From assembly GCF_003018255.1 (NCBI RefSeq), contig NZ_CP027440.1: 64,000 nucleotides of DNA; one strand, written 5' to 3'. Position 1 is the stretch's first letter. Each line of letters begins with the position of its first letter. Both the position numbers and the translations under genes were made by a program. The notes beneath the pieces were generated by a model. That model was not told the origin of the DNA and ran no database searches. It saw only the letters and a list, made by a program, of their open reading frames with translations. Below, one piece after another: positions 4,819-62,719 of this stretch. Origin of the DNA: Escherichia coli (GTDB taxonomy: Bacteria; Pseudomonadota; Gammaproteobacteria; Enterobacterales; Enterobacteriaceae).

Positions 4819-4852
4819 ATAACCGGGCGGTGAACCGCTTATTCGAAGAATA

Positions 4853-4927: not shown

Positions 4928-4950
4928 TCCGTACAACGCTTTCTGGTGAA

Positions 4951-5035: not shown

Positions 5036-5043
5036 AAAAAAGA

Positions 5044-5120: not shown

Positions 5121-5160
5121 ATCTTTTTTTTCGCGATACCTTATCGGCGTTGCGGGGCGC

Positions 5161-42237: not shown

Positions 42238-42279
42238 TAAAACGCAGCGAGCGTCTTATCAGGCATCGGTGCTGGCCTG

Positions 42280-43944
<1,665 letters not shown>

Positions 43945-44031
43945 TTAATATGTCAAAAGATTGGCTATCGACGAACAGGCGAGGTAACGCTATGTTAACG
44001 GTGTAGCTATCAGAATACGGAAGGCGCGAAG

Positions 44032-44775: not shown

Positions 44776-44797
44776 CGAATAATCAGAGGGATCGAAA

Positions 44798-45454
44798 GTG
44801 CAACGAGCGCGTTGTTATCTGATAGGTGAAACGGCGGTAGTGCTGGAGCTGGAACCGCCGGTGACGCTGGCTAGCCAGAAACGGATCTGGCGACTGGCGC
44901 AGCGTCTGGTGGATATGCCGAATGTGGTTGAAGCCATTCCCGGCATGAACAATATCACGGTGATTTTACGTAATCCTGAGTCGCTGGCGCTGGATGCCAT
45001 AGAGCGTTTGCAACGCTGGTGGGAGGAGAGTGAGGCGCTGGAGCCGGAGTCTCGCTTTATTGAAATTCCGGTGGTTTACGGTGGCGCAGCCGGACCGGAT
45101 TTGGCGGTGGTCGCGGCGCATTGTGGATTGAGCGAAAAACAGGTTGTTGAATTGCACTCCTCCGTGGAATACGTGGTCTGGTTTTTAGGTTTTCAACCGG
45201 GCTTCCCGTATCTCGGGAGTTTGCCGGAACAACTACACACGCCACGGCGCGCTGAACCGCGCTTGCTCGTTCCGGCAGGTTCTGTCGGGATCGGCGGGCC
45301 GCAGACTGGTATTTATCCGTTGGCAACGCCGGGTGGCTGGCAGTTGATTGGTCATACCTCACTCAGCCTGTTTGATCCGGCGCGTGACGAACCCATCTTA
45401 TTACGTCCGGGAGACAGCGTGCGCTTTGTACCGCAGAAGGAGGGAGTATGCTGA
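44798..45454 (+). CDS. pxpB: 5-oxoprolinase subunit B (YbgJ)
   Basis: 218-aa ORF starting at GTG: (M)[36 protein letters not shown]... Confidence 0.9.
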
Positions 45455-46380
45455 AGATTATTCGTGCGGGTATGTATACCACTGTGCAGGATGGCGGTCG
45501 TCACGGTTTTCGCCAGTCGGGTATCAGCCACTGCGGCGCACTGGATATGCCTGCGCTGCGCATTGCTAACCTACTGGTGGGTAATGACGCCAATGCCCCC
45601 GCGCTGGAGATCACGCTCGGTCAGTTAACGGTTGAGTTCGAAACTGATGGGTGGTTTGCTCTGACGGGGGCCGGTTGCGAAGCGCGGCTGGATGATAACG
45701 CCGTCTGGACCGGCTGGCGATTGCCGATGAAAGCAGGCCAGCGTTTAACGCTTAAACGCCCGCAGCACGGGATGCGCAGTTATCTGGCGGTCGCGGGTGG
45801 TATTGATGTTCCGCCGGTAATGGGGTCATGCAGCACCGATCTCAAAGTGGGGATTGGCGGGCTGGAAGGCCGTTTACTGAAGGATGGTGACCGACTCCCG
45901 ATTGGCAAATCGAAGCGTGATTTTATGGAAGCGCAGGGCGTTAAACAGCTGCTGTGGGGCAACCGCATTCGCGCCTTGCCGGGGCCGGAATATCATGAGT
46001 TCGATCGCGCCTCGCAGGATGCATTCTGGCGTTCGCCCTGGCAGCTTAGCTCGCAAAGTAACCGAATGGGCTATCGCTTACAGGGGCAAATTTTAAAACG
46101 CACCACCGATCGCGAACTGTTATCTCACGGTTTGTTACCGGGCGTGGTGCAGGTGCCACATAACGGGCAGCCGATTGTGTTGATGAACGACGCACAGACC
46201 ACCGGTGGTTATCCGCGTATTGCCTGTATCATTGAGGCTGATATGTACCATCTGGCGCAAATTCCGCTCGGTCAGCCGATTCATTTTGTCCAGTGTTCAC
46301 TGGAAGAGGCACTGAAAGCACGGCAAGATCAACAACGTTATTTCGAACAATTAGCGTGGCGGCTGCACAATGAAAATTGA
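45448..46380 (+). CDS. pxpC: 5-oxoprolinase subunit C (YbgK)
   Basis: 310-aa [36 protein letters not shown]...; overlaps pxpB by 7 nt. Confidence 0.9.
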
Positions 46381-47104
46381 CCTGAACGCCGATCTGGGCG
46401 AAGGCTGCGCCAGCGACGCAGAGCTATTAACGCTGGTTTCCTCTGCCAATATTGCCTGTGGATTTCATGCAGGCGATGCGCAAACCATGCAGGCTTGCGT
46501 GCGTGAAGCCATAAAAAATGGTGTTGCGATTGGCGCTCACCCGAGTTTTCCCGACAGGGAAAATTTTGGGCGCAGCGTCATGCAGCTGCCGCCAGAAACC
46601 ATTTACGCCCAGACGCTGTATCAAATTGGCGCGCTGGCAACGATTGCCCGTGCGCAAGGCGGTGTTATGCGTCATGTCAAACCTCACGGCATGTTATACA
46701 ACCAGGCAGTGAAAGAGGCACAACTGGCAGACGCCATCGCCAGAGCGGTATACGCTTGCGATCCGGCATTGATTCTCGTCGGACTGGCGGGAAGCGAGCT
46801 GATTCGTGCAGGCAAGCAATATGGCCTGACAACGCGCGAGGAAGTGTTTGCCGATCGCGGTTACCAGGCTGACGGCTCGCTGGTGCCGCGAAGCCAGCCA
46901 GGCGCGTTGATTGAAGACGAAGAACAGGCGCTGGCGCAAACGTTGGAGATGGTGCAACACGGCAGAGTCAAAAGTATCACCGGCGAATGGGCAACGGTCA
47001 CGGCGCAAACGGTCTGCCTGCATGGCGACGGCGAGCACGCACTGGCATTCGCCCGCCGACTACGCTCTACATTTGCCGAAAAGGGGATTGTTGTCGCAGC
47101 ATAA
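46370..47104 (+). CDS. pxpA: 5-oxoprolinase subunit A (LamB/YcsF family, YbgL)
   Basis: 244-aa [39 protein letters not shown]...; overlaps pxpC by 11 nt. Confidence 0.9.
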
Positions 47105-47139
47105 CCCCGTTTAATAAAGAATGAAAAAAGGATATCACC

Positions 47140-47931
47140 ATGCCTGAAGGCCCGGAGATCCGCCGTGCAGCGGATAACCTGGAGGCGGCGATCAAAGGCA
47201 AACCACTAACTGATGTCTGGTTTGCCTTCCCGCAGTTAAAACCTTATCAATCACAACTTATCGGTCAACACGTTACCCATGTGGAAACGCGTGGTAAGGC
47301 GTTGTTAACTCATTTTTCCAACGACTTAACGCTCTACAGCCATAATCAGCTTTACGGCGTCTGGCGCGTGGTTGATACCGGCGAAGAGCCGCAGACTACG
47401 CGAGTATTGCGGGTAAAACTGCAAACGGTTGACAAAACCATTCTGCTTTATAGCGCCTCGGATATTGAGATGTTGACGCCGGAACAACTGATCACGCATC
47501 CGTTTTTACAACGAGTCGGCCCCGATGTGCTGGATCCGAATCTGACGCCGGAGGTGGTAAAGGAACGGTTATTGTCGCCGCGCTTTCGTAACCGTCAGTT
47601 TGCTGGATTACTGCTCGATCAGGCGTTTCTGGCTGGGCTTGGCAATTATTTGCGGGTGGAGATCCTCTGGCAGGTTGGGTTGACTGGAAATCATAAAGCG
47701 AAAGATCTCAGTGCGGCGCAACTGGATGCACTCGCACACGCGTTACTGGATATTCCTCGATTTTCCTACGCTACGCGGGGGCAGGTGGATGAGAATAAGC
47801 ATCATGGGGCGCTGTTTCGCTTTAAGGTTTTTCATCGTGATGGCGAACTGTGCGAACGCTGTGGCGGCATCATTGAGAAAACCACGCTGTCATCTCGCCC
47901 GTTTTACTGGTGCCCTGGCTGTCAGCACTAG
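47140..47931 (+). CDS. nei: Endonuclease VIII (DNA glycosylase/AP lyase)
   Basis: 263-aa [31 protein letters not shown]... (N-terminal PEGPE catalytic motif), C-terminal zinc finger CERCG...CPGCQ. Confidence 0.95.
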
Positions 47932-48974
47932 GCCGTACGTTTCGGCGCATAGGTTGAAATAAACCGCGCAATGGCAGGTCCCGTCAGCAAAATACTGAAC
48001 AGGCGCAGGGTTTGCATCGCCATGATGAGCGCCATATCGGCATTGCTCCCTGCGGCGATGACCGCCACGGTATCAAGCCCGCCGGGGCTGGTGGCGAGGT
48101 AGGCGGTCATAAAATCAATATGCATAAACCGGGTCAGCCCCCACGCCATACCCGCACAAATAGCCAGCAGAGCAAAAATCGACAGCAGGATTTGCGGTAG
48201 CGGGCGCAATGCCCGCAGTAAGATTTGTTTATCGAAACCAAGACCAATCCGCCAACCAATTGCCATATACGCCATCGCAAGCAGCCATTCCGGTAGTTCG
48301 ATGGTGATGAGCTGACCAGACTGGAGCACTGCGCCCGCCAGCATCGGGATGAGCATCGTGCCGGAAGGAAGACGTAGCAAGCATCCCACTGTACCGGCAA
48401 CGACCGCGAGCAAAATCGTAAGCAGGAGATTAATGCTCACTGGCGGAAACCAGACGATCTGCTGGTTAACCGCTTCAGCGTTATCGCCCAGCATCATGCG
48501 GGTGACCAGAACAGCGGCCCCTGCGACGAACAGCACTCGCAGATATTGCATAAACGCCACCAGGCGAATATCTGCGCCGTAATCTTGCGCCATAGCGACC
48601 ATTGCCGCCGCGCCGCCAGGAGAAGAACCCCAGGCACCGGTATTTCCAGGCAGTGAGCTATAGCGCACCAATAACCAACCCACGATGGCGCTGGAAAGTA
48701 ACGTCACCAGTAAAATAGCTAACACAATCGGCCAGTTCACCGCTAGCGTGGTCAGGATCGAACCGGTCAGGTTTTGCGCAATCATGCAGCCAAGAATGGC
48801 CTGGGCGGCGAGAAAAGCGGAGCGGGGAAGTTGCAGAGTAATTCCGCGCATACTAAAGATGATCCCGGCGATCATCGGCCCAAGTAATAGCGCCGCCGGG
48901 AGATGAACCGCGAGGAAACCAATTGAAAGGAGAAGTGAGAGCACACATAACATTCCCCACTGCAAAACTGGCAT
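47928..48974 (-). CDS. abrB: AbrB-family inner membrane protein (regulator of aidB)
   Basis: Track ORF 47928..49052 trimmed to the ATG at 48974: [37 protein letters not shown]..., 348 aa; its 3' end overlaps the nei stop by 4 nt (convergent). Confidence 0.85.
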
Positions 48975-49089
48975 CCTTCGTTCCCTCATTATTTTTTCTT
49001 TGGTGTATCGATACAGCATAAAGAAAGCCGGGCCAGGAAAAAATAACAGCAATCAAGGAAAAGGGGAAAATCAGCAATTTTCTGAAAGA

Positions 49090-49118
49090 GAGGCCCTTTA
49101 CTAACTGCAAAGGGCATC
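49090..49118 (-). terminator. Putative terminator hairpin downstream of ybgO
   Basis: GCCCTTT-actaactgc-AAAGGGC stem-loop just after the ybgO stop; the U-tract is weak. Confidence 0.35.
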
Positions 49119-49126
49119 ATGATAAA

Positions 49127-50188
49127 TTAGTTATAGTTAATCTTAAAAAGCACCACTGTATCGAAGGGACCCGCTTCGATGGGGGTGCCGGGAATGGACG
49201 AAAGTTCAGCCGTATAGGTTTTTTCGTAGATCAGCATATCGCTGGTGAAATCAGCATATTCGCTGTATTTGTTGAAAGTATAGGGTGAAGAATTTTCATC
49301 CAGCAAACGTAGCTTCAGTCCATTACCAATCAGCAGTGCTTTATCCTCTTCAATCAATGTTTCTTCGGTATAAAACGAAGAGCTGACCTTAAATCCGTCG
49401 GTGCACTGGTCATTTTGTGATTTTGTCGTCTTAATACTGAATGTTTTCGACATTGTGTGGCGGCGAATATCCAGCAGGTTAAATTTACCAAAATCAATCA
49501 CCTGTGTTTCTGGTGAAATAGAAAAATTGACGCTGCAATCCAGTACACGAATGTTTTCCAGACCAGTAATATGGTATTTCAGGTTTTGGGCGGTAGGGTC
49601 TTCGTTAACGCTACCGGCACCATCAAATTGCACGACGATGTAGTCGCTAAGCGAACTTTGATAATCATGCGGCGGTATTTCGCGAATCTTAACGTATAAC
49701 CGCATACGAGCAAGAAAGGTTCGCGACATGTGAATATTAGCGGGGTCACCCGAGCATATTTTGTTCTGCCAGCCCATCGCGATAATCTGCTCAGGGGTAT
49801 AAATGTTAATGTTCTTACTGTCGATACACTGGTTGGTGTCGATGCGGCTTTTCCCCAGACTGGCATCGTAATCGACACCATTGTATGTCACGCCGAGTTG
49901 ATAATAACGATCCTGTACCCCCGGGTAGGGGTTTACCCATGCGTAGACATGTTCGCTTTCAAAGTTGCCGTTGGTATTGTTGTCACAATAGACGGGAATT
50001 TTAATATCGTCAGATTCCCAGATCTTATCGCCGGGTTTGGCATTACCTGGCACAGCAAAGGGTTGAATCGCTTCCGATTTTTCTACCGTTCCGCCGGAAG
50101 TACCAAAATAGCAGTTCAGCGCTAGCGCAGACTTCAATGGCAGAAATACCAGACAGATGACGAGCAACACTCCCTTGCCAGCACTCAT
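49127..50188 (-). CDS. ybgO: Putative fimbrial adhesin-like protein (tip subunit of the ybgD operon)
   Basis: Track ORF 49127..50218 trimmed to the ATG at 50188: [23 protein letters not shown]... (signal peptide), 353 aa; last gene of the chaperone-usher operon. Confidence 0.8.
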
Positions 50189-50916
50189 TTCTTCGCCTCC
50201 ACTGCTTGTAAACGGCATTGTCCGCTGCAGTTGAGCGTCGTCATGCGTAACGCGCCGTAATCATCCATATAACCGAGATAAAACTGACTGCCGCTATAAC
50301 TTCCGGTGTTTGTAATTACTGTACTAAAAGGCGCAACCATCACGGTTTTGAAGCCGGGAAGAACGCCTTTTTCATTTCTCCCCAGATAGGCAATGGTCAG
50401 ATAATACGCGGTAGGATTTTTCAGTGTCAGTTGGTTGCCCTGCTGGCTGACCTGTAACTGCAGTTCGACCTTTTCTCCTGCTTTCTTGCGTAATGCAGCC
50501 GGTCGCCAGAATACCTTGATACGACTCTGAATGGCGACTTGCAGAACGGCATGGCCGCTGTTTTTTTCTGGGGAGGGAGGAATTTCACGCATATTGTAGA
50601 AAAATAGCGTTTCGCGATCGCCCGGTAATTTTGTGGTCGAGGCTTGCTTTACTATCCGTACCTGCGTTGTTGCTTTCGGTTCCAGACGTTGTATCGGTGG
50701 CAGGGCAACCAGAAGATCATCGCTTTTCTCCCCTTTTTCATTTTCGAGCCAGGAATAAGCGAGGTAGGGGAGTTTATCGCTACGATTATCCACGCGCAGA
50801 CTGGTAGCTTTATCATTAGCGTTAAACACAATACGAGTGCGATCGGGTTGTAGTGCAGCGTGGCTGCACAGACTGGCAACCAACAACAAAAGGGGTAGTC
50901 CTTTCATAAATGTCAT
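50185..50916 (-). CDS. ybgP: Periplasmic fimbrial chaperone (PapD-like)
   Basis: Track ORF 50185..50940 (TTG start); ATG at 50916 has the best-spaced AAGGA: [20 protein letters not shown].... The exact start is uncertain (50922 and 50907 are alternatives). Confidence 0.8.
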
Positions 50917-50930
50917 TTTCATTTCCTTAA

Positions 50931-53390
50931 TTAATGACAAGGTAAAATCAGGCGATTTGCGGTGTCTTCCATATGTTCAGGAAGATGGAGCGAGCAACGC
51001 TGGCTATCACCCCAGATCACGGTAAATTGTTGATTTTCAGCGACTCCGCTTAACCAGGCATGTCCTTCCTCGCCAACCATCCCCACGCTAATGCCGCTGT
51101 TATCCTGGCGGATATCCGCACCGAGGGGAGGGAACTGACCGCTGGCGTTGCGAATGATGACGTTAACGTCTTTACCGGAACGGGAAGCCAGCGATTTGTA
51201 ACCTATCGCGCCTTCAATCCACGTTTCTTTGATAACGTTTTCTGCCACTGTTACGCCGTCGGGTAAGTCATTCATGTTCACCGCCACGGTGGAAGGCTGA
51301 TAACTGGAAATCAACGGCACCACCGCAATGCCAAAATGGTTGGTGTAGTCGAGATTGCCCTGAACCGGAATATCTGCCACGCCATCGGTACTGACCATCA
51401 GACGTGGTTCATTGGTGGAGCTGCGACGATGGAACGCCGCACCATATTGAGTTGCCGTGAAAGAACCGCTCCAGCTGCTGCTGACGGAACTGTAATCATT
51501 GGCGGCATAGGTACCAGAAATATCCCACTCACCCGCTGAACTCAGGTGCTGATAGTTACCGCTCACCTGGGCTCCATTATCCGGACGGTCGGATTGCAGT
51601 CCGGTAGACATGCCCCAGCTATTACGTTCATCTAACGTATCATTCCACGACATGCGGTGCGTGGTGCTGTGACTACTGTTTTGCATGTCATAACCGACCC
51701 GCCCCCCGTTACCGAAGGGGAGCGAAATCGACAGGTAAATCTGATTGTCGCGATCTTTATCTTCGTAATGGGTTGTATTGAATGACGTCGAGATCGAGAT
51801 ATCTCTCCAGTTACCAATATCAACATTAAAACCCGCCGTGATGTTGGCGGTCGTGGAGGCGTCTGCATTCCACCAGGTTTGATGCAGCAGGTTGGCGTAC
51901 AGATTGAGGTTCAGTGGGGTAATCGGTTGGCCCACGGATAAGCTGATCGTCTGTTTTTCGTCCTGCGCATCGCTGTTGTTGTATTTGTGATCCAGATAGT
52001 TGGCGTAGCTGTGAAAATGACGATCGGAGAAACGATAAGCGGCGAGCGAAATCGTGCTGTCGGTGGCATCCACTTGTTTGCTGTAATTAAAGCGGTAACT
52101 TAAGCCCCGCTCGTCCTGCTGAGTATCAAACTGACTACTGGCCCACGTGACATCAAACGACAATGCACCAAGCCACAGCATATTTTGCCCGATACCCATT
52201 GCGGCAGAATGGTAGTCGTCACCCGAAATCAGCAGGCCGCCGTACAGTGAGGTATTTGACAGCATCCCCCAGGAAACTTCATTGCTAAAAAAGGTTTCAT
52301 TTTCAGTTTGATGAGACATAGATGTTCGCGGCTGACCGGCAGCAAGTTTATAGCGAACCTGCCCCTGGCGCGTAAGGAAAGGCGTCGATGCTGCCGAAAC
52401 CTGGAAATTGTTCGCCCGACCATCTTCTTCCGTCACTTTGACATCTAACGTACCCTGGACGGACTGATTAAGGTCATCAATGATAAACGGACCTGGTGGG
52501 ACTTTCTTCTGGTAAATAACTCGCCCTGAGTGACTCACGGTGACGGTGGCGTTGGTTTGTGCAATGCCGCTGATTTGTGGGGCGTAGCCGCGTAGCTCCC
52601 ACGGTAACATCCGATCGTCACTTGCCAGTGCCGCGCCGGTATAAGAAAAGCCGTCGAAAATATTGGAACTGAAATCCGTTTCACCAAGGGTTAATTTTGA
52701 ACCTAATTGCGGTAATGGACGAAAAAGATAGGTGCGTGATATTTCGCCTGACTGTTCATGGTTATCATCGCTATCGGTCTGATTCAATTGGTAATCACTG
52801 CGTAAACGCCATGCTCCCGCGTTAATTCCGGCTGTTCCATAGGCGTTCAGGTTAGTGCTGTTGCTACCATCCTGTGGGCGGTAGCTGCTTGCAAACAGGT
52901 TGTAGTCCATCAGGACGCCGGCGACACCTTCTTTCCATGTTGAGGGGGGAGTCCAGTTATCTGAGTGCCACGCCAGCCAGGCTTGTGGAATAGTGATATT
53001 CAGTTGCTGGCTAGCCTGATCAAAAATGAAGAGAATTTCAGGCCGGGAGCTAAAATCGACGCACTGGTTTAACCGTGGTAACGACTGACGAACTTCAGGT
53101 TTTAAACCAAATTTATCTACCAGTAAATCATTAATACACGGAATGGTTTGGTCACCGTTCTTTTTCCAGTCAATTTTTTGTCCGTTACTGATTTGGTTGT
53201 TATTTACTGCAACGCTAACAAAATATTCACCGGGAACAATGACCCCTTTTCCCTTTAATAATGAAATATCAATGCGATCTCGCATCGATTTATCGAGGAC
53301 ATTCAGGTTGAATTCGACCGCCAATGCGCAAGGCATCGCCATGACCAGACAGGATATAAAAGAGAGTCGATAAATATTCACGGTGTCCAT
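50931..53390 (-). CDS. ybgQ: Outer membrane fimbrial usher
   Basis: About 820-aa ORF; the first ATG at 53390 gives MDTVNIYRLSFISCLVMAMPCALA...; large beta-barrel usher architecture. Confidence 0.85.
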   Translation of the reverse strand: MDTVNIYRLSFISCLVMAMPCALAVEFNLNVLDKSMRDRIDISLLKGKGVIVPGEYFVSVAVNNNQISNGQKIDWKKNGDQTIPCINDLLVDKFGLKPEVRQSLPRLNQCVDFSSRPEILFIFDQASQQLNITIPQAWLAWHSDNWTPPSTWKEGVAGVLMDYNLFASSYRPQDGSNSTNLNAYGTAGINAGAWRLRSDYQLNQTDSDDNHEQSGEISRTYLFRPLPQLGSKLTLGETDFSSNIFDGFSYTGAALASDDRMLPWELRGYAPQISGIAQTNATVTVSHSGRVIYQKKVPPGPFIIDDLNQSVQGTLDVKVTEEDGRANNFQVSAASTPFLTRQGQVRYKLAAGQPRTSMSHQTENETFFSNEVSWGMLSNTSLYGGLLISGDDYHSAAMGIGQNMLWLGALSFDVTWASSQFDTQQDERGLSYRFNYSKQVDATDSTISLAAYRFSDRHFHSYANYLDHKYNNSDAQDEKQTISLSVGQPITPLNLNLYANLLHQTWWNADASTTANITAGFNVDIGNWRDISISTSFNTTHYEDKDRDNQIYLSISLPFGNGGRVGYDMQNSSHSTTHRMSWNDTLDERNSWGMSTGLQSDRPDNGAQVSGNYQHLSSAGEWDISGTYAANDYSSVSSSWSGSFTATQYGAAFHRRSSTNEPRLMVSTDGVADIPVQGNLDYTNHFGIAVVPLISSYQPSTVAVNMNDLPDGVTVAENVIKETWIEGAIGYKSLASRSGKDVNVIIRNASGQFPPLGADIRQDNSGISVGMVGEEGHAWLSGVAENQQFTVIWGDSQRCSLHLPEHMEDTANRLILPCH

Positions 53391-53440
53391 ACCTGATAAA
53401 TATTTGAAGAAAGGCAGCGATAGCGCCGCCAAAGTGATAC

Positions 53441-54007
53441 TTATTTATAATCCAGCACGTAGGTTGCATTCGCCGTAACTGCACCTGGCGTTACAGGTGT
53501 TGCCTGATCAATTTGTTCCATCCAGGCAAAGAAATTCAGCGTTTGCTCGCTGGAGGTCGGAGCCAGGTCGATATCTGGAGTCGCGGTGCCTAAAACGATA
53601 TTGCTTTGATCTTTATTCATTAAACGCACGCCGACACCGGTGGCTTCACCCGTGCTGGTGTTGTTGAGAATCGGATCTGCGCCGGTGGTTTTCGCTGAGC
53701 TGTCAAAGGTGACTGCAACTTTAGAAATCTTGCCGCCGGAACCGTTGTTGGAGTTTTCCAAATCGCAGTTGACTAAGCGCAGGTCGACAGCAACGGCATC
53801 GCTGTGATGTGACTGATTAATGTGGCTGGTGGTCACCTGACCGAGTTCAACCTCTTTATCAATATCATCCTGATGTATTTCACACGGTGCTTCAATAACT
53901 TCACCTTTAAAGTGAATTTCACCGGATCCTTCATCAGCCGCATAAACAGGTGCTGTGAATAGCAGAGATATGGCCAGTGCGGCCAATGTTTTTTGTCCTT
54001 TAAACAT
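53441..54007 (-). CDS. ybgD: Fimbrial major subunit (FimA-like pilin)
   Basis: Track ORF 53441..54094 trimmed to the ATG at 54007: MFKGQKTLAALAISLLFTAPVYA (signal peptide), 188 aa, C-terminal ...ATYVLDYK donor-strand-type tail. Confidence 0.85.
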   Translation of the reverse strand: MFKGQKTLAALAISLLFTAPVYAADEGSGEIHFKGEVIEAPCEIHQDDIDKEVELGQVTTSHINQSHHSDAVAVDLRLVNCDLENSNNGSGGKISKVAVTFDSSAKTTGADPILNNTSTGEATGVGVRLMNKDQSNIVLGTATPDIDLAPTSSEQTLNFFAWMEQIDQATPVTPGAVTANATYVLDYK

Positions 54008-54334
54008 AGCTGAGTCCTTTAAATAATGAGATAGAGTGTTGCGAGGCAAGAATATATTAACTGACAGTTGAATGTATTTGGTTTTATTTAACAATATTAA
54101 AAAGCTTGTTATATAAAGAATGGAATAATTGAGTGCATAAATTTATTGTTTAATGAGATGAAAGATGGGGTGGGATGGATATGCATAATTTTCATTGGGT
54201 TAACAATGCTACCGGCAGGAAAGTAAAAAAATAAACTTATCATTCTGCTCAGTATGTGGCTTGTCACATTTTTTCACCTTATTAATGGGTATTTGCATCT
54301 GGTTTAATTTTTACAATTTATTATGTTCAGCCAT

Positions 54335-54368
54335 ATAAAAAAGAACCCGCTCTATTAAAGGCGGGTCC
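54335..54368 (-). terminator. gltA rho-independent terminator
   Basis: Minus strand reads GGACCCGC-ctttaataga-GCGGGTTC followed by T6, 30 bp after the gltA stop. Confidence 0.6.
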
Positions 54369-54396
54369 GGAAAGTAAACGGCTTAGCAATCAACCA

Positions 54397-55680
54397 TTAA
54401 CGCTTGATGTCGCTTTTAAAGTCGCGTTTTTCATATCCTGTATACAGTTGACGCGGACGGGCAATCTTCATACCGTCACTGTGCATTTCGCTCCAGTGGG
54501 CGATCCAGCCAACGGTGCGTGCCATAGCGAAGATCACGGTGAACATAGAAGACGGAATACCCATCGCTTTCAGGATGATACCAGAGTAGAAATCGACGTT
54601 CGGATAGAGTTTCTTCTCGATAAAGTACGGGTCGTTCAGCGCGATGTTTTCCAGCTCCATAGCCACTTCCAGCAGGTCATCTTTGGTACCCAGCTCTTTC
54701 AGCACTTCATGGCAGGTTTCACGCATTACGGTGGCGCGCGGGTCGTAATTTTTGTACACGCGGTGACCGAAGCCCATCAGGCGGAAAGAATCATTTTTAT
54801 CTTTCGCACGACGAACAAATTCCGGAATGTGTTTAACGGAGCTGATTTCTTCCAGCATTTTCAGCGCCGCTTCGTTAGCACCACCGTGCGCAGGTCCCCA
54901 CAGTGAAGCAATACCTGCTGCGATACAGGCAAACGGGTTCGCCCCCGAAGAGCCAGCGGTACGCACGGTGGAGGTGGAGGCGTTCTGTTCATGGTCAGCG
55001 TGCAGGATCAGAATACGGTCCATAGCACGTTCCAGAATCGGATTAACTTCATACGGTTCGCACGGCGTAGAGAACATCATATTCAGGAAGTTACCGGCGT
55101 AGGAGAGATCGTTGCGCGGGTAAACAAATGGCTGACCAATGGAATACTTGTAACACATCGCGGCCATGGTCGGCATTTTCGACAGCAGGCGGAACGCGGC
55201 AATTTCACGGTGACGAGGATTGTTAACATCCAGCGAGTCGTGATAGAACGCCGCCAGCGCGCCGGTAATACCACACATGACTGCCATTGGATGCGAGTCG
55301 CGACGGAAAGCATGGAACAGACGGGTAATCTGCTCGTGGATCATGGTATGACGGGTCACCGTAGTTTTAAATTCGTCATACTGTTCCTGAGTCGGTTTTT
55401 CACCATTCAGCAGGATGTAACAAACTTCCAGGTAGTTAGAATCGGTCGCCAGCTGATCGATCGGGAAACCGCGGTGCAGCAAAATACCTTCATCACCATC
55501 AATAAAAGTAATTTTAGATTCGCAGGATGCGGTTGAAGTGAAGCCTGGGTCAAAGGTGAATACACCTTTTGAACCGAGAGTACGGATATCAATAACATCT
55601 TGACCCAGCGTGCCTTTCAGCACATCCAGTTCAACAGCTGTATCCCCGTTGAGGGTGAGTTTTGCTTTTGTATCAGCCAT
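54397..55680 (-). CDS. gltA: Citrate synthase
   Basis: 427-aa [50 protein letters not shown]... Confidence 0.97.
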
Positions 55681-56388
55681 TTAAGGTCTCCTTAGCGCCT
55701 TATTGCGTAAGACTGCCGGAACTTAAATTTGCCTTCGCACATCAACCTGGCTTTACCCGTTTGTTATTTGGCTCGCCGCTCTGTGAAAGAGGGGAAAACC
55801 TGGGTACAGAGCTCTGGGCGCTTGCAGGTAAAGGATCCATTGATGACGAATAAATGGCGAATCAAGTACTTAGCAATCCGAATTATTAAACTTGTCTACC
55901 ACTAATAACTGTCCCGAATGAATTGGTCAATACTTCCACACTGTTACATAAGTTAATCTTAGGTGAAATACCGACTTCATAACTTTTACGCATTATATGC
56001 TTTTCCTGGTAATGTTTGTAACAACTTTGTTGAATGATTGTCAAATTAGATGATTAAAAATTAAATAAATGTTGTTATCGTGACCTGGATCACTGTTCAG
56101 GATAAAACCCGACAAACTATATGTAGGTTAATTGTAATGATTTTGTGAACGGCCTATACTGCCGCCAGGTCTCCGGAACACCCTGCAATCCCGAGCCACC
56201 CAGCGTTGTAACGTGTCGTTTTCGCATCTGGAAGCAGTGTTTTGCATGACGCGCAGTTATAGAAAGGACGCTGTCTGACCCGCAAGCAGACCGGAGGAAG
56301 GAAATCCCGACGTCTCCAGGTAACAGAAAGTTAACCTCTGTGCCCGTAGTCCCCAGGGAATAATAAGAACAGCATGTGGGCGTTATTC
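55681..56388. promoter_or_regulatory. gltA-sdhC divergent intergenic control region
   Basis: 708-bp AT-rich spacer between divergent TCA-cycle operons; it holds the divergent promoters and, from the literature, the sdhC leader targeted by small RNAs. Individual sites were not resolved. Confidence 0.5.
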
Positions 56389-56778
56389 ATGATAAGAAAT
56401 GTGAAAAAACAAAGACCTGTTAATCTGGACCTACAGACCATCCGGTTCCCCATCACGGCGATAGCGTCCATTCTCCATCGCGTTTCCGGTGTGATCACCT
56501 TTGTTGCAGTGGGCATCCTGCTGTGGCTTCTGGGTACCAGCCTCTCTTCCCCTGAAGGTTTCGAGCAAGCTTCCGCGATTATGGGCAGCTTCTTCGTCAA
56601 ATTTATCATGTGGGGCATCCTTACCGCTCTGGCGTATCACGTCGTCGTAGGTATTCGCCACATGATGATGGATTTTGGCTATCTGGAAGAAACATTCGAA
56701 GCGGGTAAACGCTCCGCCAAAATATCCTTTGTTATTACTGTCGTGCTTTCACTTCTCGCAGGAGTCCTCGTATGGTAA
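56389..56778 (+). CDS. sdhC: Succinate dehydrogenase cytochrome b556 subunit
   Basis: Track ORF 56374..56778 trimmed to the ATG at 56389: [34 protein letters not shown]..., 129 aa. Confidence 0.92.
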
Positions 56779-57119
56779 GCAACGCCTCCGCATTAGGACG
56801 CAATGGCGTACATGATTTCATCCTCGTTCGCGCTACCGCTATCGTCCTGACGCTCTACATCATTTATATGGTCGGTTTTTTCGCTACCAGTGGCGAGCTG
56901 ACATATGAAGTCTGGATCGGTTTTTTCGCCTCTGCGTTCACCAAAGTGTTCACCCTGCTGGCGCTGTTTTCTATCTTGATCCATGCCTGGATCGGCATGT
57001 GGCAGGTGTTGACCGACTACGTTAAACCGCTGGCCTTGCGCCTGATGCTGCAACTGGTGATTGTCGTTGCTCTGGTGGTTTACGTGATTTATGGATTCGT
57101 TGTGGTGTGGGGTGTGTGA
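56772..57119 (+). CDS. sdhD: Succinate dehydrogenase hydrophobic membrane anchor subunit
   Basis: 115-aa [40 protein letters not shown]... Confidence 0.95.
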
Positions 57120-58885
57120 TGAAATTGCCAGTCAGAGAATTTGATGCAGTTGTGATTGGTGCCGGTGGCGCAGGTATGCGCGCGGCGCTGCAAATTTCCC
57201 AGAGCGGCCAGACCTGTGCGCTGCTCTCTAAAGTCTTCCCGACCCGTTCCCATACCGTTTCTGCGCAAGGCGGCATTACCGTTGCGCTGGGTAATACCCA
57301 TGAAGATAACTGGGAATGGCATATGTACGACACCGTAAAAGGGTCGGACTATATCGGTGACCAGGACGCGATTGAATATATGTGTAAAACCGGGCCGGAA
57401 GCGATTCTGGAACTGGAACATATGGGCCTGCCGTTCTCGCGTCTTGATGATGGTCGTATCTATCAACGTCCGTTTGGCGGTCAGTCGAAAAACTTCGGCG
57501 GCGAGCAGGCGGCACGTACTGCGGCGGCAGCTGACCGTACCGGTCACGCACTGTTGCACACCCTTTATCAGCAGAACCTGAAAAACCACACCACCATTTT
57601 CTCCGAGTGGTATGCGCTGGATCTGGTGAAAAACCAGGATGGCGCGGTGGTCGGTTGTACCGCACTGTGCATCGAAACTGGTGAAGTGGTTTACTTCAAA
57701 GCTCGCGCTACCGTGCTGGCGACTGGCGGGGCAGGGCGTATTTATCAGTCCACTACCAACGCCCACATTAACACTGGCGACGGCGTCGGCATGGCTATCC
57801 GTGCAGGCGTACCAGTGCAGGATATGGAAATGTGGCAGTTCCACCCGACCGGTATTGCCGGTGCGGGCGTACTGGTCACCGAAGGTTGCCGTGGTGAAGG
57901 CGGTTATCTGCTGAACAAACATGGCGAACGCTTTATGGAGCGTTATGCGCCGAACGCCAAAGACCTGGCGGGCCGTGACGTGGTGGCGCGTTCCATCATG
58001 ATCGAAATCCGTGAAGGCCGCGGCTGTGATGGTCCGTGGGGGCCACACGCAAAACTGAAACTTGACCATCTGGGGAAAGAAGTTCTCGAATCCCGTCTGC
58101 CGGGTATTCTGGAACTCTCCCGCACCTTCGCTCACGTTGATCCGGTGAAAGAGCCGATTCCGGTAATTCCAACCTGTCACTACATGATGGGCGGTATTCC
58201 GACCAAAGTGACCGGTCAGGCGCTGACTGTGAATGAGAAAGGCGAAGATGTGGTTGTTCCGGGGCTGTTTGCCGTTGGTGAAATCGCTTGTGTATCGGTA
58301 CATGGCGCTAACCGTCTGGGCGGCAACTCGCTGCTGGACCTGGTCGTATTTGGTCGTGCGGCAGGTCTGCATCTGCAAGAGTCTATTGCCGAGCAGGGCG
58401 CACTGCGCGATGCCAGCGAGTCTGATGTAGAAGCGTCTCTGGATCGCCTGAACCGCTGGAACAATAACCGTAACGGTGAAGATCCGGTGGCGATCCGTAA
58501 AGCACTGCAAGAATGTATGCAGCATAACTTCTCGGTCTTCCGTGAAGGTGATGCGATGGCGAAAGGGCTTGAGCAGTTGAAAGTTATCCGCGAGCGTCTG
58601 AAAAATGCCCGTCTGGATGACACTTCCAGCGAGTTCAACACCCAGCGCGTTGAGTGCCTGGAACTGGATAACCTGATGGAAACGGCGTATGCAACGGCTG
58701 TTTCTGCCAACTTCCGTACCGAAAGCCGTGGCGCGCATAGCCGCTTCGACTTCCCGGATCGCGATGATGAAAACTGGCTGTGCCACTCCCTGTATCTGCC
58801 AGAGTCGGAATCCATGACGCGCCGAAGCGTCAACATGGAACCGAAACTGCGCCCGGCATTCCCGCCGAAGATTCGTACTTACTAA
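57119..58885 (+). CDS. sdhA: Succinate dehydrogenase flavoprotein subunit
   Basis: Track ORF 57107..58885 trimmed to the ATG at 57119 (overlapping the sdhD stop): [25 protein letters not shown]..., 588 aa. Confidence 0.95.
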
Positions 58886-58900
58886 TGCGGAGACAGGAAA

Positions 58901-59617
58901 ATGAGACTCGAGTTTTCAATTTATCGCTATAACCCGGATGTTGATGATGCTCCGCGTATGCAGGATTACACCCTGGAAGCGGAAGAAGGTCGTGACATGA
59001 TGCTGCTGGATGCGCTTATCCAGCTGAAAGAGAAAGATCCCAGCCTGTCGTTCCGTCGCTCCTGCCGTGAAGGTGTGTGCGGTTCCGACGGTCTGAACAT
59101 GAACGGCAAGAATGGTCTGGCCTGTATTACCCCGATTTCGGCACTCAACCAGCCGGGCAAGAAGATTGTGATTCGCCCGCTGCCAGGTTTACCGGTGATC
59201 CGCGATTTGGTGGTAGACATGGGACAATTCTATGCGCAATATGAGAAAATTAAGCCTTACCTGTTGAATAATGGACAAAATCCGCCAGCTCGCGAGCATT
59301 TACAGATGCCAGAGCAGCGCGAAAAACTCGACGGGTTGTATGAATGTATTCTCTGCGCATGTTGTTCAACCTCTTGTCCGTCTTTCTGGTGGAATCCCGA
59401 TAAGTTTATCGGCCCGGCAGGCTTGTTAGCGGCATATCGTTTCCTGATCGATAGCCGTGATACCGAGACTGACAGCCGCCTCGACGGTTTGAGCGATGCA
59501 TTCAGTGTATTCCGCTGTCACAGCATCATGAACTGCGTCAGTGTATGTCCGAAGGGGCTGAACCCGACGCGCGCCATCGGCCATATCAAGTCGATGTTGT
59601 TGCAACGTAATGCGTAA
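58901..59617 (+). CDS. sdhB: Succinate dehydrogenase iron-sulfur subunit
   Basis: 238-aa ORF with Cys clusters CREGVCGSDGLNMNG and CILCACCSTSCP. Confidence 0.96.
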   Translation: MRLEFSIYRYNPDVDDAPRMQDYTLEAEEGRDMMLLDALIQLKEKDPSLSFRRSCREGVCGSDGLNMNGKNGLACITPISALNQPGKKIVIRPLPGLPVIRDLVVDMGQFYAQYEKIKPYLLNNGQNPPAREHLQMPEQREKLDGLYECILCACCSTSCPSFWWNPDKFIGPAGLLAAYRFLIDSRDTETDSRLDGLSDAFSVFRCHSIMNCVSVCPKGLNPTRAIGHIKSMLLQRNA

Positions 59618-59620
59618 ACC

Positions 59621-59738
59621 GTAGGCCTGAGAAGACGCGCAAGCGTCGCATCAGGCAACCAGTGCCGGATGCGGCGTGAACGCCTTATCCGGCCTACAAG
59701 TCATTACCCGTAGGCCTGATAAGCGCAGCGCATCAGGC
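59621..59738. repeat. Cluster of three REP units (BIME) in the sdhB-sucA spacer
   Basis: gtaggcctgagaagacgcgcaagcgtcgcatcaggc / gccggatgcggcgtgaacgccttatccggcctac / gtaggcctgataagcgcagcgcatcaggc, alternating orientation. Confidence 0.75.
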
Positions 59739-59760
59739 GTAACAAAGAAATGCAGGAAAT

Positions 59761-59799
59761 CTTTAAAAACTGCCCCTGACACTAAGACAGTTTTTAAAG
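59761..59799 (+). other. Perfect 12-bp-stem hairpin in the sdhB-sucA spacer
   Basis: CTTTAAAAACTG-cccctgacactaaga-CAGTTTTTAAAG; two further inverted repeats follow before the sucA start codon. Confidence 0.5.
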
Positions 59800-59917
59800 G
59801 TTCCTTCGCGAGCCACTACGTAGACAAGAGCTCGCAAGTGAACCCCGGCACGCACATCACTGTGCGTGGTAGTATCCACGGCGAAGTAAGCATAAAAAAG
59901 ATGCTTAAGGGATCACG

Positions 59918-62719
59918 ATGCAGAACAGCGCTTTGAAAGCCTGGTTGGACTCTTCTTACCTCTCTGGCGCAAACCAGAGCTGGATAGAACAGCTCTATGA
60001 AGACTTCTTAACCGATCCTGACTCGGTTGACGCTAACTGGCGTTCGACGTTCCAGCAGTTACCTGGTACGGGAGTCAAACCGGATCAATTCCACTCTCAA
60101 ACGCGTGAATATTTCCGCCGCCTGGCGAAAGACGCTTCACGTTACTCTTCAACGATCTCCGACCCTGACACCAATGTGAAGCAGGTTAAAGTCCTGCAGC
60201 TCATTAACGCATACCGCTTCCGTGGTCACCAGCATGCGAATCTCGATCCGCTGGGACTGTGGCAGCAAGATAAAGTGGCCGATCTGGATCCGTCTTTCCA
60301 CGATCTGACCGAAGCAGACTTCCAGGAGACCTTCAACGTCGGTTCATTTGCCAGCGGCAAAGAAACCATGAAACTCGGCGAGCTGCTGGAAGCCCTCAAG
60401 CAAACCTACTGCGGCCCGATTGGTGCCGAGTATATGCACATTACCAGCACTGAAGAAAAACGCTGGATCCAACAGCGTATCGAGTCTGGTCGCGCGACTT
60501 TCAATAGCGAAGAGAAAAAACGCTTCTTAAGCGAACTGACCGCCGCTGAAGGCCTTGAACGTTACCTCGGCGCAAAATTCCCTGGCGCAAAACGCTTCTC
60601 GCTGGAAGGTGGTGACGCGTTAATCCCGATGCTTAAAGAGATGATCCGCCACGCTGGCAACAGCGGCACCCGCGAAGTGGTTCTCGGGATGGCGCACCGT
60701 GGTCGTCTGAACGTGCTGGTGAACGTGCTGGGTAAAAAACCGCAAGACTTGTTCGACGAGTTTGCCGGTAAACATAAAGAACACCTCGGCACGGGCGACG
60801 TGAAATACCACATGGGCTTCTCGTCTGACTTCCAGACCGATGGCGGCCTGGTGCACCTGGCGCTGGCGTTTAACCCGTCTCACCTTGAGATTGTAAGCCC
60901 GGTCGTTATCGGTTCTGTTCGTGCCCGTCTGGACAGACTTGATGAGCCGAGCAGCAACAAAGTGCTGCCAATCACCATTCATGGTGACGCCGCAGTGACC
61001 GGGCAGGGCGTGGTTCAGGAAACCCTGAACATGTCGAAAGCGCGTGGTTATGAAGTTGGCGGTACGGTACGTATCGTTATCAACAACCAGGTTGGCTTCA
61101 CCACCTCTAACCCGCTGGATGCCCGTTCGACGCCGTACTGTACTGATATCGGCAAGATGGTACAGGCACCGATTTTCCACGTTAATGCGGATGATCCGGA
61201 AGCCGTTGCTTTTGTGACCCGTCTGGCGCTCGATTTCCGTAACACCTTTAAACGTGATGTCTTCATCGACCTGGTGTGCTACCGCCGTCACGGCCACAAC
61301 GAAGCCGACGAGCCGAGCGCAACCCAGCCGCTGATGTATCAGAAAATCAAAAAACATCCGACGCCGCGCAAAATCTATGCTGACAAGCTGGAGCAGGAAA
61401 AAGTCGCGACGCTGGAAGATGCCACCGAGATGGTTAACCTGTACCGCGATGCGCTGGATGCTGGCGATTGCGTTGTAGCAGAGTGGCGTCCGATGAACAT
61501 GCACTCTTTCACCTGGTCGCCGTACCTCAACCACGAATGGGACGAAGAGTACCCGAACAAAGTTGAGATGAAGCGCCTGCAGGAACTGGCTAAACGCATC
61601 AGCACGGTGCCGGAAGCAGTTGAAATGCAGTCTCGCGTTGCCAAGATTTATGGCGATCGCCAGGCGATGGCTGCTGGTGAGAAACTGTTCGACTGGGGCG
61701 GCGCGGAAAACCTCGCTTACGCCACGCTGGTTGATGAAGGCATTCCGGTTCGCCTGTCGGGTGAAGACTCCGGTCGCGGTACCTTCTTCCACCGCCACGC
61801 GGTGATCCACAACCAGTCTAACGGTTCCACTTACACGCCGCTGCAACATATCCATAACGGTCAGGGCGCGTTCCGTGTCTGGGACTCCGTACTGTCAGAA
61901 GAAGCCGTGCTGGCGTTTGAATACGGTTATGCCACCGCAGAACCACGCACTCTGACCATCTGGGAAGCGCAGTTCGGTGACTTCGCCAACGGTGCGCAGG
62001 TGGTTATCGACCAGTTCATCTCCTCTGGCGAACAGAAATGGGGCCGGATGTGTGGCCTGGTGATGTTGCTGCCGCACGGTTACGAAGGGCAGGGGCCGGA
62101 GCACTCCTCCGCGCGTCTGGAACGTTATCTGCAACTTTGCGCTGAGCAAAACATGCAGGTGTGCGTACCTTCTACCCCGGCACAGGTTTACCACATGCTG
62201 CGTCGTCAGGCGTTGCGCGGGATGCGTCGTCCACTGGTCGTGATGTCGCCGAAATCCCTGCTGCGTCATCCGCTGGCGGTATCCAGCCTCGAAGAACTGG
62301 CGAACGGCACCTTCCTGCCAGCCATCGGTGAAATCGACGAGCTTGATCCGAAGGGCGTGAAGCGCGTAGTGATGTGTTCTGGTAAGGTTTATTACGACCT
62401 GCTGGAACAACGTCGTAAGAACAATCAACACGATGTCGCCATTGTGCGTATCGAGCAACTCTACCCGTTCCCGCATAAAGCGATGCAGGAAGTGTTGCAG
62501 CAGTTTGCTCACGTCAAGGATTTTGTCTGGTGCCAGGAAGAGCCGCTCAATCAGGGCGCATGGTACTGCAGCCAGCATCATTTCCGTGAAGTGATTCCGT
62601 TTGGGGCTTCTCTGCGTTATGCAGGCCGCCCGGCCTCCGCCTCTCCGGCGGTAGGGTATATGTCCGTTCACCAGAAACAGCAACAAGATCTGGTTAATGA
62701 CGCGCTGAACGTCGAATAA
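59918..62719 (+). CDS. sucA: 2-oxoglutarate dehydrogenase E1 component
   Basis: 933-aa [51 protein letters not shown]... Confidence 0.97.

Follow-up and report, generated by a model that had tools for sequence, protein, structure and literature searches.

Limits, identity and composition of the gltA–sdhC spacer

Within the window analysed here, a 64-kb stretch of Escherichia coli DNA (64,000 nucleotides), gltA and the sdhCDAB operon diverge from a spacer that occupies exactly 55681..56388 (708 bp), as delimited by the open reading frame list and the K-12 annotation. The gltA start codon lies at 55678-55680, with the ribosome-binding sequence AAGGAG at 55688-55693, and sdhC begins in K-12 (MIRN...) at ATG 56389. 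The 708-bp gap reported in an earlier interpretation made from the letters of the window (hereafter, the sequence-only reading) therefore holds with the K-12 sdhC start, while the NCBI pipeline PGAP starts sdhC at the in-frame ATG 56374, which shortens the spacer to 693 bp. Compared with the other four divergent gene pairs from roughly the same chromosomal interval of an O157:H7 genome, mapped to the window and 184-332 bp apart, the gltA–sdhC spacer is at least twice as long as any (n = 5, a small sample). In that O157:H7 genome the spacer is 100% identical to that of the window; elsewhere the two are 88-98% identical and not colinear.

Relative to K-12, 706 of 708 spacer bases are identical, with two single-nucleotide differences (55763 G/T and 56151 G/A, the latter in the last repeat region of a four-repeat ArcA site) and no indels, which allows coordinates published for K-12 to be carried over exactly. 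Nearly every complete E. coli genome carries the spacer (5425/5426), at 95.6-100% identity.

The features of the two flanks and of the region between the transcripts are as follows.

54397..55680, minus strand: gltA (citrate synthase) coding sequence, from the open reading frame list and annotated gltA in three E. coli records
55681..55979, minus strand: gltA 5' leader from promoter P2, 299 nt, its start site taken from a published ArcA offset
55992..56021, minus strand: gltA promoter P2, with -10 TATAAT (55997..55992) and -35 TTACAA (56021..56016)
56016..56047, plus strand: ArcA site of three direct repeats (named 'sdhC1' in the publication and assigned there to gltA), a 32/32 match to the PMC3798270 supplement, conservation 0.79
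56076..56097, no strand assigned: CRP-like site with core CGTGA-N6-TCACT, 15/22 to consensus and 8/10 in the core, conservation 0.86
56099..56152, plus strand: ArcA site 'sdhC2' of four direct repeats, a 53/54 match to the PMC3798270 supplement, conservation 0.91
56132..56160, plus strand: sdhC promoter, with -35 TTGTAA, a 17-bp spacer and -10 TATACT
56170..56388, plus strand: sdhC 5' leader, 219 nt, its start site taken from a published ArcA offset

Both start sites follow from the ArcA ChIP-seq supplement, which lists a gltA site at -68 to -37 and an sdhC site at -71 to -18 (PMC3798270): with the former at 56016-56047, gltA P2 starts at 55979, and the latter sets the sdhC start at 56170. On these coordinates, 518 of the 708 bp (~73%) are transcribed leader, and only 190 bp (55980-56169) separate the outermost start sites. 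The sequence-only reading had called the spacer far longer than needed for two promoters. Its length stands, but the picture of an oversized promoter region does not, because most of the spacer consists of two long 5' leaders. Its description of the spacer as AT-rich was likewise right in part: GC content is 43.5% for the whole spacer against 52.2% for the window, but it drops to 29-35% only over the central ~300 bp (about 55850-56150), with 43-57% in the transcribed flanks.

Promoters and regulator sites in the core

Promoter scoring of gltA P2 predicted a start near 55985, compared with the published 55979. On the opposite strand, the sdhC promoter was the sole match of the consensus scan and had the best plus-strand promoter score, and the 10-bp bins spanning it (56121-56180) are conserved at 0.93-0.99; the published start at 56170 falls 10 nt past the -10 hexamer, which is slightly far. 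The four-repeat ArcA site overlaps the sdhC -35 and encloses a Fur-box-like sequence (13/19 match, 56127-56145). Motif scans were run as consensus counts, and the Fur-like and additional ArcA-like matches lie in AT-rich DNA, where matching is easier. Among all positions of the window, the CRP-like site scores within the top 0.005%. It is centred at 56086.5, which corresponds to -83.5 relative to the sdhC start site and lies 107.5 bp upstream of that of gltA P2.

These scans, proposed by the sequence-only reading for ArcA, CRP and Fur, agree with its view that several global regulators converge on the region, as does the literature. For ArcA, deletion of arcA derepressed sdhCDAB 133-fold under anaerobic conditions (PMC3798270); for CRP, one site is common to gltA and sdhCDAB (PMC3105977); and Fur has been documented at the gltA–sdhC region (PMC4676285).

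Conservation across species

All 79 other usable species, most of them Enterobacteriaceae, likewise have gltA and sdhC in divergent orientation, separated by 637-1159 bp (median, 655). Across 75 non-Escherichia species, mean identity of the spacer to E. coli is 0.74, or 0.80 when one lineage-specific insert is left out, and conservation of 95% or more is reached at 44-48% of positions. As a baseline we used four-fold degenerate sites from a protein-guided codon alignment of gltA, which have a mean of 0.55, with 7.7% of sites reaching 95% and a best run of 20 of only 0.75. The sequence-only reading was to be given up if alignments held no conserved blocks beyond the two core promoters. What they hold is many blocks of at least 20 bp with identity of at least 0.85 outside those promoters, including 55681-55716 next to gltA (0.90), and nearly the whole spacer lies above the synonymous baseline. 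Conservation of the leaders probably reflects regulation at the RNA level.

The gltA side of the spacer and its small open reading frames

Three further features lie on the gltA side of the spacer.

55801..55823, minus strand: stretch of the gltA leader complementary to the 5' seed of Spot 42, with 10 contiguous Watson-Crick pairs in 55801-55812
55870..55902, minus strand: ybgV, a small open reading frame of 10 aa with a GTG start (K-12 b4768)
55886..55993, minus strand: ybgU, a small open reading frame of 35 aa (K-12 b4735; 'hypothetical protein' in PGAP)

A second gltA start, P1, reportedly falls within the leader (Wilde & Guest 1986; Park 1994), near 55876 and thus ~196 nt 5' of the ATG. 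Close by, an IHF-like core at 55860-55872 includes the -182 position at which a mutation is reported from the long-term evolution experiment. The Spot 42 complement spans -143 to -121 from the ATG, forms a predicted local duplex of -20.9 kcal/mol and is conserved at 0.90 over 55801-55810. Spot 42 reportedly targets gltA, a finding credited to Beisel and Storz in 2011.

The sequence-only reading had found only short spurious open reading frames in the spacer, and neither ybgU nor ybgV was on its list. This part of it has to be withdrawn: ybgU and ybgV are short overlapping same-strand reading frames upstream of gltA, with ybgV overlapping the 3' end of ybgU, and their translation products have been detected as epitope-tagged proteins (YbgU, PMC6001520; YbgV, bioRxiv 10.1101/511675). 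Both are annotated in K-12 and identical to K-12 in the window, and the ybgU ATG is preceded by AGGAAAA, plausibly a ribosome-binding sequence. It could be argued from this that the spacer is long and conserved as it encodes functional small proteins under coding constraint, an explanation that we consider very unlikely. The two frames together span only 124 of the 708 bp. Across 80 species, the ybgU frame read from the aligned start varies from 9 to 52 aa, its ATG is replaced by ATA, ATT or GTT in 21 species, and ybgV is intact in just 22; ybgU shows neither third-position relaxation nor codon periodicity (0.73/0.79/0.76). Start, frame and periodicity, the marks of a conserved small-protein gene, are therefore not kept by ybgU and ybgV in these 80 species. 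Such conservation as the ybgU ATG (55993..55991) does have is explained by its position inside the -10 hexamer of gltA P2.

Small-RNA pairing and structure in the sdhC leader

The sdhC leader holds four features.

56227..56255, plus strand: small hairpin region and complement of the RyhB core, with 13 contiguous pairs between 56228-56240 and RyhB nt 48-60, at -162 to -134 from the ATG
56305..56361, plus strand: 57-nt imperfect palindrome, a putative internally deleted ERIC/IRU repeat by positional homology and arm similarity
56324..56346, plus strand: Spot 42 pairing site, with 12 contiguous pairs at 56334-56345, at -65 to -43 from the ATG
56355..56392, plus strand: sdhC translation initiation region, from duplex predictions and literature

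Pairing was scored by windowed duplexes together with opening energies; full-length small RNAs against full-length leaders gave long duplexes no better than those of shuffles. In the initiation region, which contains two in-frame ATGs (56374 and 56389) and whose 10-bp bins over 56361-56388 are conserved at 0.85-0.97, duplex prediction identified a complement of the RybB 5' seed at 56355-56380 and a RyhB site at 56360-56392. An AU-rich stretch, AAUAAUAAGAA (56359-56369), is a candidate Hfq site. The sequence-only reading had named the sdhC leader as a target of small RNAs including RyhB and had suggested looking for duplexes near the sdhC start, where these two complements were found. Its proposal is also in line with published work, in which control of sdhC by RyhB, Spot 42 and RybB is documented (PMC6393394, PMC5861419, PMC5861431) and in which RyhB pairs with the sdhC ribosome-binding sequence and Spot 42 brings Hfq near it (PMC5861431).

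Of 12,796 windows scored across the two strands, the Spot 42 site in the sdhC leader comes first, with a duplex energy of -26.9 kcal/mol (-12.4 after opening costs), and its position agrees with the published one, ~50 nt before the start codon (PMC5861419). Lying at -65 to -43, it is too far upstream for a direct block of the ribosome. According to the published mechanism, Hfq at an AU-rich site of the translation start blocks the 30S subunit (PMC5861419, PMC5861431).

For RyhB, the best hybrid on both strands of the 64-kb window is formed with 56227-56255 (-30.1 kcal/mol), and with opening costs the 13-bp core there scores -14.1 compared with -3.0 at the translation-start site. This strongest complementarity to the RyhB core is far upstream of the published RyhB site at the ribosome-binding sequence, and we did not find it in the literature searched. 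The complement is present in 7 of ~25 named genera sampled and absent in Klebsiella, Kluyvera and Raoultella. We also weighed a 10-codon upstream open reading frame in the same leader (56246-56278) but discarded it, since it lacks a ribosome-binding sequence and its frame is broken by indels in other genera.

Another account of the length and conservation, which we regard as quite improbable, would make one long leader a cis-regulatory RNA with a defined structure, for example a riboswitch or thermosensor. Several observations are compatible with it: the sdhC leader bins over 56171-56210 are conserved at 0.93-0.95, RNAalifold predicts long-range helices that join 56170-56176 to about 56291-56297 and 56201-56206 to about 56268-56273 and, in the alignment as read by eye, pairing in the small hairpin near 56228-56240 is preserved where both of its sides have changed in different genera. 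However, the leader folds no better than shuffled sequences (z = +0.63; 147 of 200 shuffles at least as stable), and Rfam gave no match at E<=1 across 54000-58000. The predicted long-range pairs never vary and so offer no support from covariation; the corresponding energy term amounts to just -0.74 kcal/mol, and compensatory changes occur in only 2 of the 28 pairs predicted for the leader from the RNAalifold alignment.

A palindromic insert in the sdhC leader

ERIC/IRU elements are imperfect palindromes of about 127 bp in transcribed intergenic regions. The 57-nt palindrome at 56305-56361 is likewise intergenic and transcribed, being inside the 219-nt sdhC leader, and its 3' arm contains the Spot 42 site. 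Among 80 spacers, the insert is absent with a clean junction in 58; a short form is found in 16, the window included, from Escherichia, Salmonella, some Citrobacter and Intestinirhabdus; and full-length ERIC copies occupy the same insertion point in the remaining 6 species. An ERIC model built solely from other loci matches those six copies (E=7e-18 to 4e-13), and the E. coli ERIC between ydiK and ydiJ, which matches both ERIC PCR primers, aligns to them. The short forms align to both arms of the full-length copies at 55-76% identity (E. coli, 55-60%; Citrobacter, 66-76%).

Assignment of the E. coli insert to the ERIC family by sequence alone was tried and rejected, as profile searches gave no significant match. 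The independent ERIC model had no match on the window spacer at E<=20, and a model that includes the orthologous copies matches only 56340-56365, weakly (E=4.3). The conserved central inverted repeat, with the ERIC1R and ERIC2 primer sites, is missing from the insert; the ERIC2 primer core has no match in the window at <=3 mismatches, and the ERIC primers gave no alignment scoring >=10 against the insert. Its fold as an imperfect hairpin (-14.5 kcal/mol) is not significant (z=-1.2). On the basis of positional homology and 55-60% arm identity, 56305-56361 nevertheless looks like an ERIC repeat that has lost its interior. In the literature searched, we found neither an ERIC-like insert carrying the sdhC Spot 42 site nor any link of ERIC to sdhC or Spot 42.

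Only species with the short form reach Spot 42 duplex energies of -22 kcal/mol or stronger, and in species without it complementarity is weak (-14 to -20 kcal/mol), the window-wide 1st percentile being -18.7 kcal/mol.

That the extra length is merely neutral filler, the spacer being a hotspot for repeat insertions and not a functional unit, can practically be dismissed: lengths do differ between species by discrete insertions of ~24-200 bp at few sites, including ERIC in the sdhC and gltA leaders, and the E. coli spacer itself holds a 57-nt remnant, but that repeat is only 57 of 708 bp, and with insertions removed a ~650-bp core remains in every species and is conserved far above the synonymous baseline.

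Interpretation

We are confident that the window spacer is orthologous to the classical divergent regulatory region between gltA and sdhCDAB of E. coli, and that it owes its length to a compact core and two regulated leaders. Coordinates, conservation, motif matches, complementarities and repeat homology were observed here, and protein binding, regulation and start sites are taken from the literature. The interpretation of the spacer as a regulatory region is supported and was already known.

In this organization, the 190-bp untranscribed core holds both promoters and their shared operators (two ArcA sites, the CRP-like site and the Fur-box-like sequence) and would link the two TCA-cycle operons to the oxygen, carbon and iron status of the cell. 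The P2 leader of gltA (299 nt) and the sdhC leader (219 nt) would serve as platforms for post-transcriptional control. RybB and RyhB would act at the sdhC translation start and Spot 42 ~50 nt upstream together with Hfq, its site there probably supplied by the ERIC-derived 57-nt remnant. The gltA leader would contribute its conserved Spot 42 seed complement, and the gltA side also has the two translated small open reading frames.

More tentatively, and with somewhat less than even confidence, we suggest that the sdhC Spot 42 site was created by an ERIC insertion that was then trimmed to the 57-nt palindrome in the Escherichia–Salmonella–Citrobacter group, that the Spot 42 site of the gltA leader is old and that 56227-56255 is a second, stronger RyhB site ~150 nt upstream of the start codon. 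If true, Spot 42 control of succinate dehydrogenase would be a lineage-specific innovation from a domesticated repeat. Confirmation would make this a case of a dispersed repeat co-opted as a small-RNA docking site in a core metabolic operon, a point of modest weight, and would suggest why a textbook non-canonical small-RNA mechanism may be limited to few genera.

The finding on the spacer as a whole is a rediscovery of a control region that ranks among the best characterised in the central metabolism of E. coli. Its value is a coordinate-level map in which the excess length is two regulated leaders and not extra promoter DNA, and in which real open reading frames are present.

Comparison with known systems

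The closest relative is the K-12 gltA–sdhCDAB region, which has the same flanking genes, 708-bp length, ArcA sites, promoter hexamers and ybgU/ybgV, and which differs only by the two single-nucleotide changes. The K-12 promoter/operator region is said to have been described by Wilde and Guest in 1986, by Park and colleagues in 1994 and 1995 and by Shen and Gunsalus in 1997.

With the translated leader small open reading frames found in the VanOrsdel 2018 and Weaver 2019 screens, ybgU and ybgV share detected products. They differ in that they are not conserved as open reading frames and in that the mapped P2 start site is downstream of the ybgU ATG. Transcription of ybgU would need another promoter, for which TTGACA (56044)-18-TACAAA (56020) on the minus strand is a candidate.

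The insert resembles ERIC/IRU elements in its transcribed intergenic location, in its imperfect palindrome and in the presence of full-length ERIC at the identical insertion point in six other species. Unlike them, the E. coli insert is only 57 nt long, lacks the conserved central core and is not detected by an ERIC profile alone.

Finally, the sdhC leader shares with the non-canonical repression of sdhC by Spot 42 and Hfq (Desnoyers & Masse 2012, per PMC5861419 and PMC5861431) a strong upstream complement and an AU-rich stretch by the translation start. To that system the present analysis adds that the Spot 42 site is in a lineage-specific palindromic insert, absent from 58 of 80 spacers.

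Length and conservation of the gltA–sdhC spacer

The sequence-only reading had described a long, AT-rich control region of 708 bp between the divergent genes gltA and sdhC. The length is exact: gltA occupies 54397..55680 (minus strand) and sdhC starts at 56389 in the K-12 annotation (129-aa SdhC), leaving 55681..56388 between them. PGAP annotations use an in-frame ATG at 56374 (134 aa), and both ATGs lie within strongly conserved sequence. Overall GC content was 43.5% versus 52.2% for the window, but the label 'AT-rich' fits only ~55850–56150 (29–35% GC) and not the outer parts (43–57% GC). The interval 46000–60000 is 100% identical to strain JNE23-011, and the spacer was present at ≥95.6% identity in 5,425 of 5,426 complete E. 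coli genomes. Relative to K-12 MG1655 it carries two differences (55763 and 56151) and zero indels, so K-12 literature coordinates transfer one-to-one to the window.

Four other divergent gene pairs from roughly the same chromosomal interval of an O157:H7 genome, whose record is incompletely colinear with the window, are separated by 184–332 bp; in this small sample, every other gap is at most half the length of the gltA–sdhC spacer. The excess is mainly two transcribed leaders. The length appears unusual because 518 of the 708 bp are leader, with only 190 bp (55980–56169) between the outermost start sites, which is not unusual for divergent promoters. Beside gltA, the ybgOPQD fimbrial operon (42232–54019) is 88.5% identical to O157:H7 compared with 96–98% for its flanks, which suggests a divergent operon allele in this strain's lineage. 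Between ubiF and asnB (~4400–5130) there is a tRNA array (Gln, Met, Leu), placed solely by mapping to the annotated O157 record.

Among sdhC neighbourhoods from 80 species, mostly Enterobacteriaceae, 79 loci were usable, and gltA and sdhC were divergent neighbours in all of them (spacer range 637–1,159 bp; median, 655). In a MAFFT alignment, mean identity of 75 non-Escherichia species to the E. coli spacer was 0.74, rising to 0.80 after removal of one lineage-specific insert, with 44 to 48% of positions at least 95% conserved. Four-fold degenerate sites of gltA in the same species gave a baseline of 0.55, with 7.7% of sites at least 95% conserved and a maximum of 0.75 for any run of 20. Identity far above this baseline places almost the entire spacer under purifying selection. 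Conserved blocks are numerous beyond the two core promoters, contrary to the outcome that the sequence-only reading had named as refuting it.

Promoters and regulator sites

ArcA sites have been published at −68 to −37 of gltA and −71 to −18 of sdhC (ChIP-seq supplement of PMC3798270). Their offsets place start sites at 55979 (gltA P2) and 56170 (sdhC). Anaerobically, an arcA deletion strain derepresses sdhCDAB 133-fold and gltA 7-fold, with two ArcA binding regions (PMC3798270); gltA and sdhCDAB are served by a single common CRP site (PMC3105977); and anaerobic gltA is bound and repressed by Fur (PMC4676285). Integration of several global regulators, as had been proposed, is supported by the literature, by the ArcA sequences themselves and by the CRP-like match.

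Features of the promoter core
55979, minus strand: gltA P2 start site, 299 nt 5' of the ATG, from the ArcA-site offset
55997–55992, minus strand: gltA P2 −10 box, a perfect TATAAT
56016–56047: three-repeat ArcA site, 32 of 32 bases of the published sequence
56076–56097: CRP-like site, 15/22 of consensus, top 0.005% of window positions
56099–56152: four-repeat ArcA site, 53 of 54 bases of the published sequence
56127–56145: Fur-box-like match (13/19), overlapping the sdhC −35
56132–56160: sdhC promoter, TTGTAA-17-TATACT
56170, plus strand: sdhC start site, leader of 219 nt, from the ArcA-site offset

The CRP-like site is centered at −83.5 relative to the sdhC start site. Nam et al. (2005) reportedly gave a CRP position at the gltA–sdhC region. 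A perfect IHF core consensus (AATCAAGTACTTA) at 55860–55872 spans −182 from the gltA ATG and sits downstream of the gltA P1 start (about −196). In a Lenski-line backcross, a point mutation at gltA −182 lowered gltA mRNA about tenfold (PMC4718724).

Small open reading frames

The short ORFs of the spacer had been dismissed as spurious, which needs correcting in part: two are annotated in K-12, with identical copies in the window, and tagged products have been detected, although neither behaves as a conserved gene.

55886..55993, minus strand: ybgU, 35 aa
55870..55902, minus strand: ybgV, 10 aa

Epitope tagging detected both YbgU (PMC6001520) and YbgV (bioRxiv 10.1101/511675). Across species, the ybgU frame runs for 9–52 aa from the aligned start, and 21 of 80 have ATA, ATT or GTT in place of its ATG. 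Just 22 of 80 have an intact ybgV, and small-ORF conservation revealed no codon periodicity. The ybgU ATG (55993–55991) falls inside the P2 −10 box TATAAT, upstream of the P2 start site, so another transcript would be needed for its expression. A candidate promoter for ybgU, possibly an unmapped third promoter, consists of a consensus TTGACA at 56044 and TACAAA at 56020 (minus strand). Within conserved sequence of the sdhC leader, a 10-codon upstream ORF (MTRSYRKDAV, 56246–56278) has no ribosome-binding sequence, is broken by indels in other genera and is probably not translated.

A palindromic insert in the sdhC leader

The spacer alignment revealed that 56305–56361 is an insert, a 57-nt imperfect palindrome, which is missing from 58 of 80 spacers with a clean junction joining AAGGAAAC to AATAAGAAC. 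Palindromes of ~57 nt (short forms) occur in 16 spacers, including the window, from Escherichia, Salmonella, several Citrobacter species and Intestinirhabdus, while six species carry a ~125-nt element (long form) at the identical point. One long form has a median of four matches per E. coli genome, at intergenic sites that lack annotation, and its match between ydiK and ydiJ contains both ERIC PCR primer sequences. A profile built exclusively from ERIC copies at other loci recognized all six long forms (E = 7e-18 to 4e-13). The short forms can be aligned with each terminal arm of the long forms, at identities of 66–76% (Citrobacter), 69% (Salmonella) and 55–60% (E. coli). Since the profile search alone left the E. 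coli short form undetected, we infer the origin of the insert from positional homology, by which it is probably an ERIC remnant.

The gltA leader is likewise an insertion hotspot in other genera, with full ERIC copies in Buttiauxella, three inserts of 120–200 bp in Intestinirhabdus and a 43-bp insert in Salmonella. Locus handles below denote gltA–sdhC loci of other species.

~55720: inserts in L012 and L022
~55725: inserts in L072 and L074
~55743: 43-bp inserts in L021 and L023
~55895: insert in L073
Three inserts: L059

Predicted small RNA pairing

The sdhC leader had also been named as a small RNA target, and published work has RyhB, Spot 42 and RybB acting on sdhC (PMC6393394, PMC5861419, PMC5861431). 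Two of our windowed duplex predictions lie at the translation start.

56355–56380: RybB 5' seed, predicted pairing, covers the upstream ATG 56374
56360–56392: RyhB, weak predicted pairing, covers both ATGs

This weak RyhB duplex is consistent with the published pairing at the ribosome-binding sequence (PMC5861431). Spot 42 nt 4–26 is predicted to pair with 56324–56346, −65 to −43 from the sdhC ATG (−26.9 kcal/mol; 12 contiguous pairs), the strongest Spot 42 duplex on both strands of the 64-kb window and in agreement with the published site '~50 nt upstream' (PMC5861419).

The Spot 42 site falls in the 3' arm of the 57-nt insert. The E. coli Spot 42 sequence was applied to every species, on the assumption that its 5' seed is conserved. 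Of 16 short-form spacers, 15 gave duplexes at or beyond −22 kcal/mol (−22.3 to −29.0); values were weaker in spacers without the insert (−14 to −20) and in those carrying the full-length element (−17 to −19), against a window-wide first percentile of −18.7 kcal/mol. The gltA leader also contains a deeply conserved complement to the Spot 42 seed (55801–55812; 10 Watson–Crick pairs), so one seed may address both divergent operons. The minus-strand complement at 55801–55823 includes a 10-bp perfect seed match (GGGUACAGAG), and positions 55801–55810 are conserved at 0.90.

RyhB core nt 33–61 has a further predicted partner at 56227–56255, −162 to −134 from the sdhC ATG (hybrid energy, −30.1 kcal/mol; 13 contiguous pairs), the top RyhB-core duplex on both window strands (runner-up, −28.4). 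After opening costs, its 13-bp core retains −14.1 versus −3.0 for the translation-start site. Escherichia, Salmonella, Citrobacter, Enterobacter, Lelliottia, Leclercia and Silvania retain the complementary stretch, which is absent from Klebsiella, Kluyvera and Raoultella. The stretch overlaps a small hairpin whose pairing, in the alignment read by eye, is preserved by compensatory changes between genera, so the complementarity could simply reflect that hairpin. On these predictions, a second RyhB site that functions in the cell is conceivable here, if somewhat doubtful.

The sdhC leader had no match in an Rfam search and no excess fold stability over shuffled sequences (z = +0.63), and the long-range helices predicted for it do not vary, which leaves them uninformative. 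The sdhC mRNA 5' end UCUCCGG (56170–56176) is complementary to CCGGAGG(AAGG) (56291–56297), 120 nt downstream; both sides are identical in almost all of the 22 species compared, with one pairing-preserving U-to-C change, so covariation is uninformative here.

Relation to known biology

The literature searched contained no link between ERIC and the sdhC-leader site. The ERIC-remnant and upstream-RyhB observations are modestly interesting hypotheses. The sequence-only observation itself is real and its interpretation correct, and the gltA–sdhC control region is already known, textbook biology.
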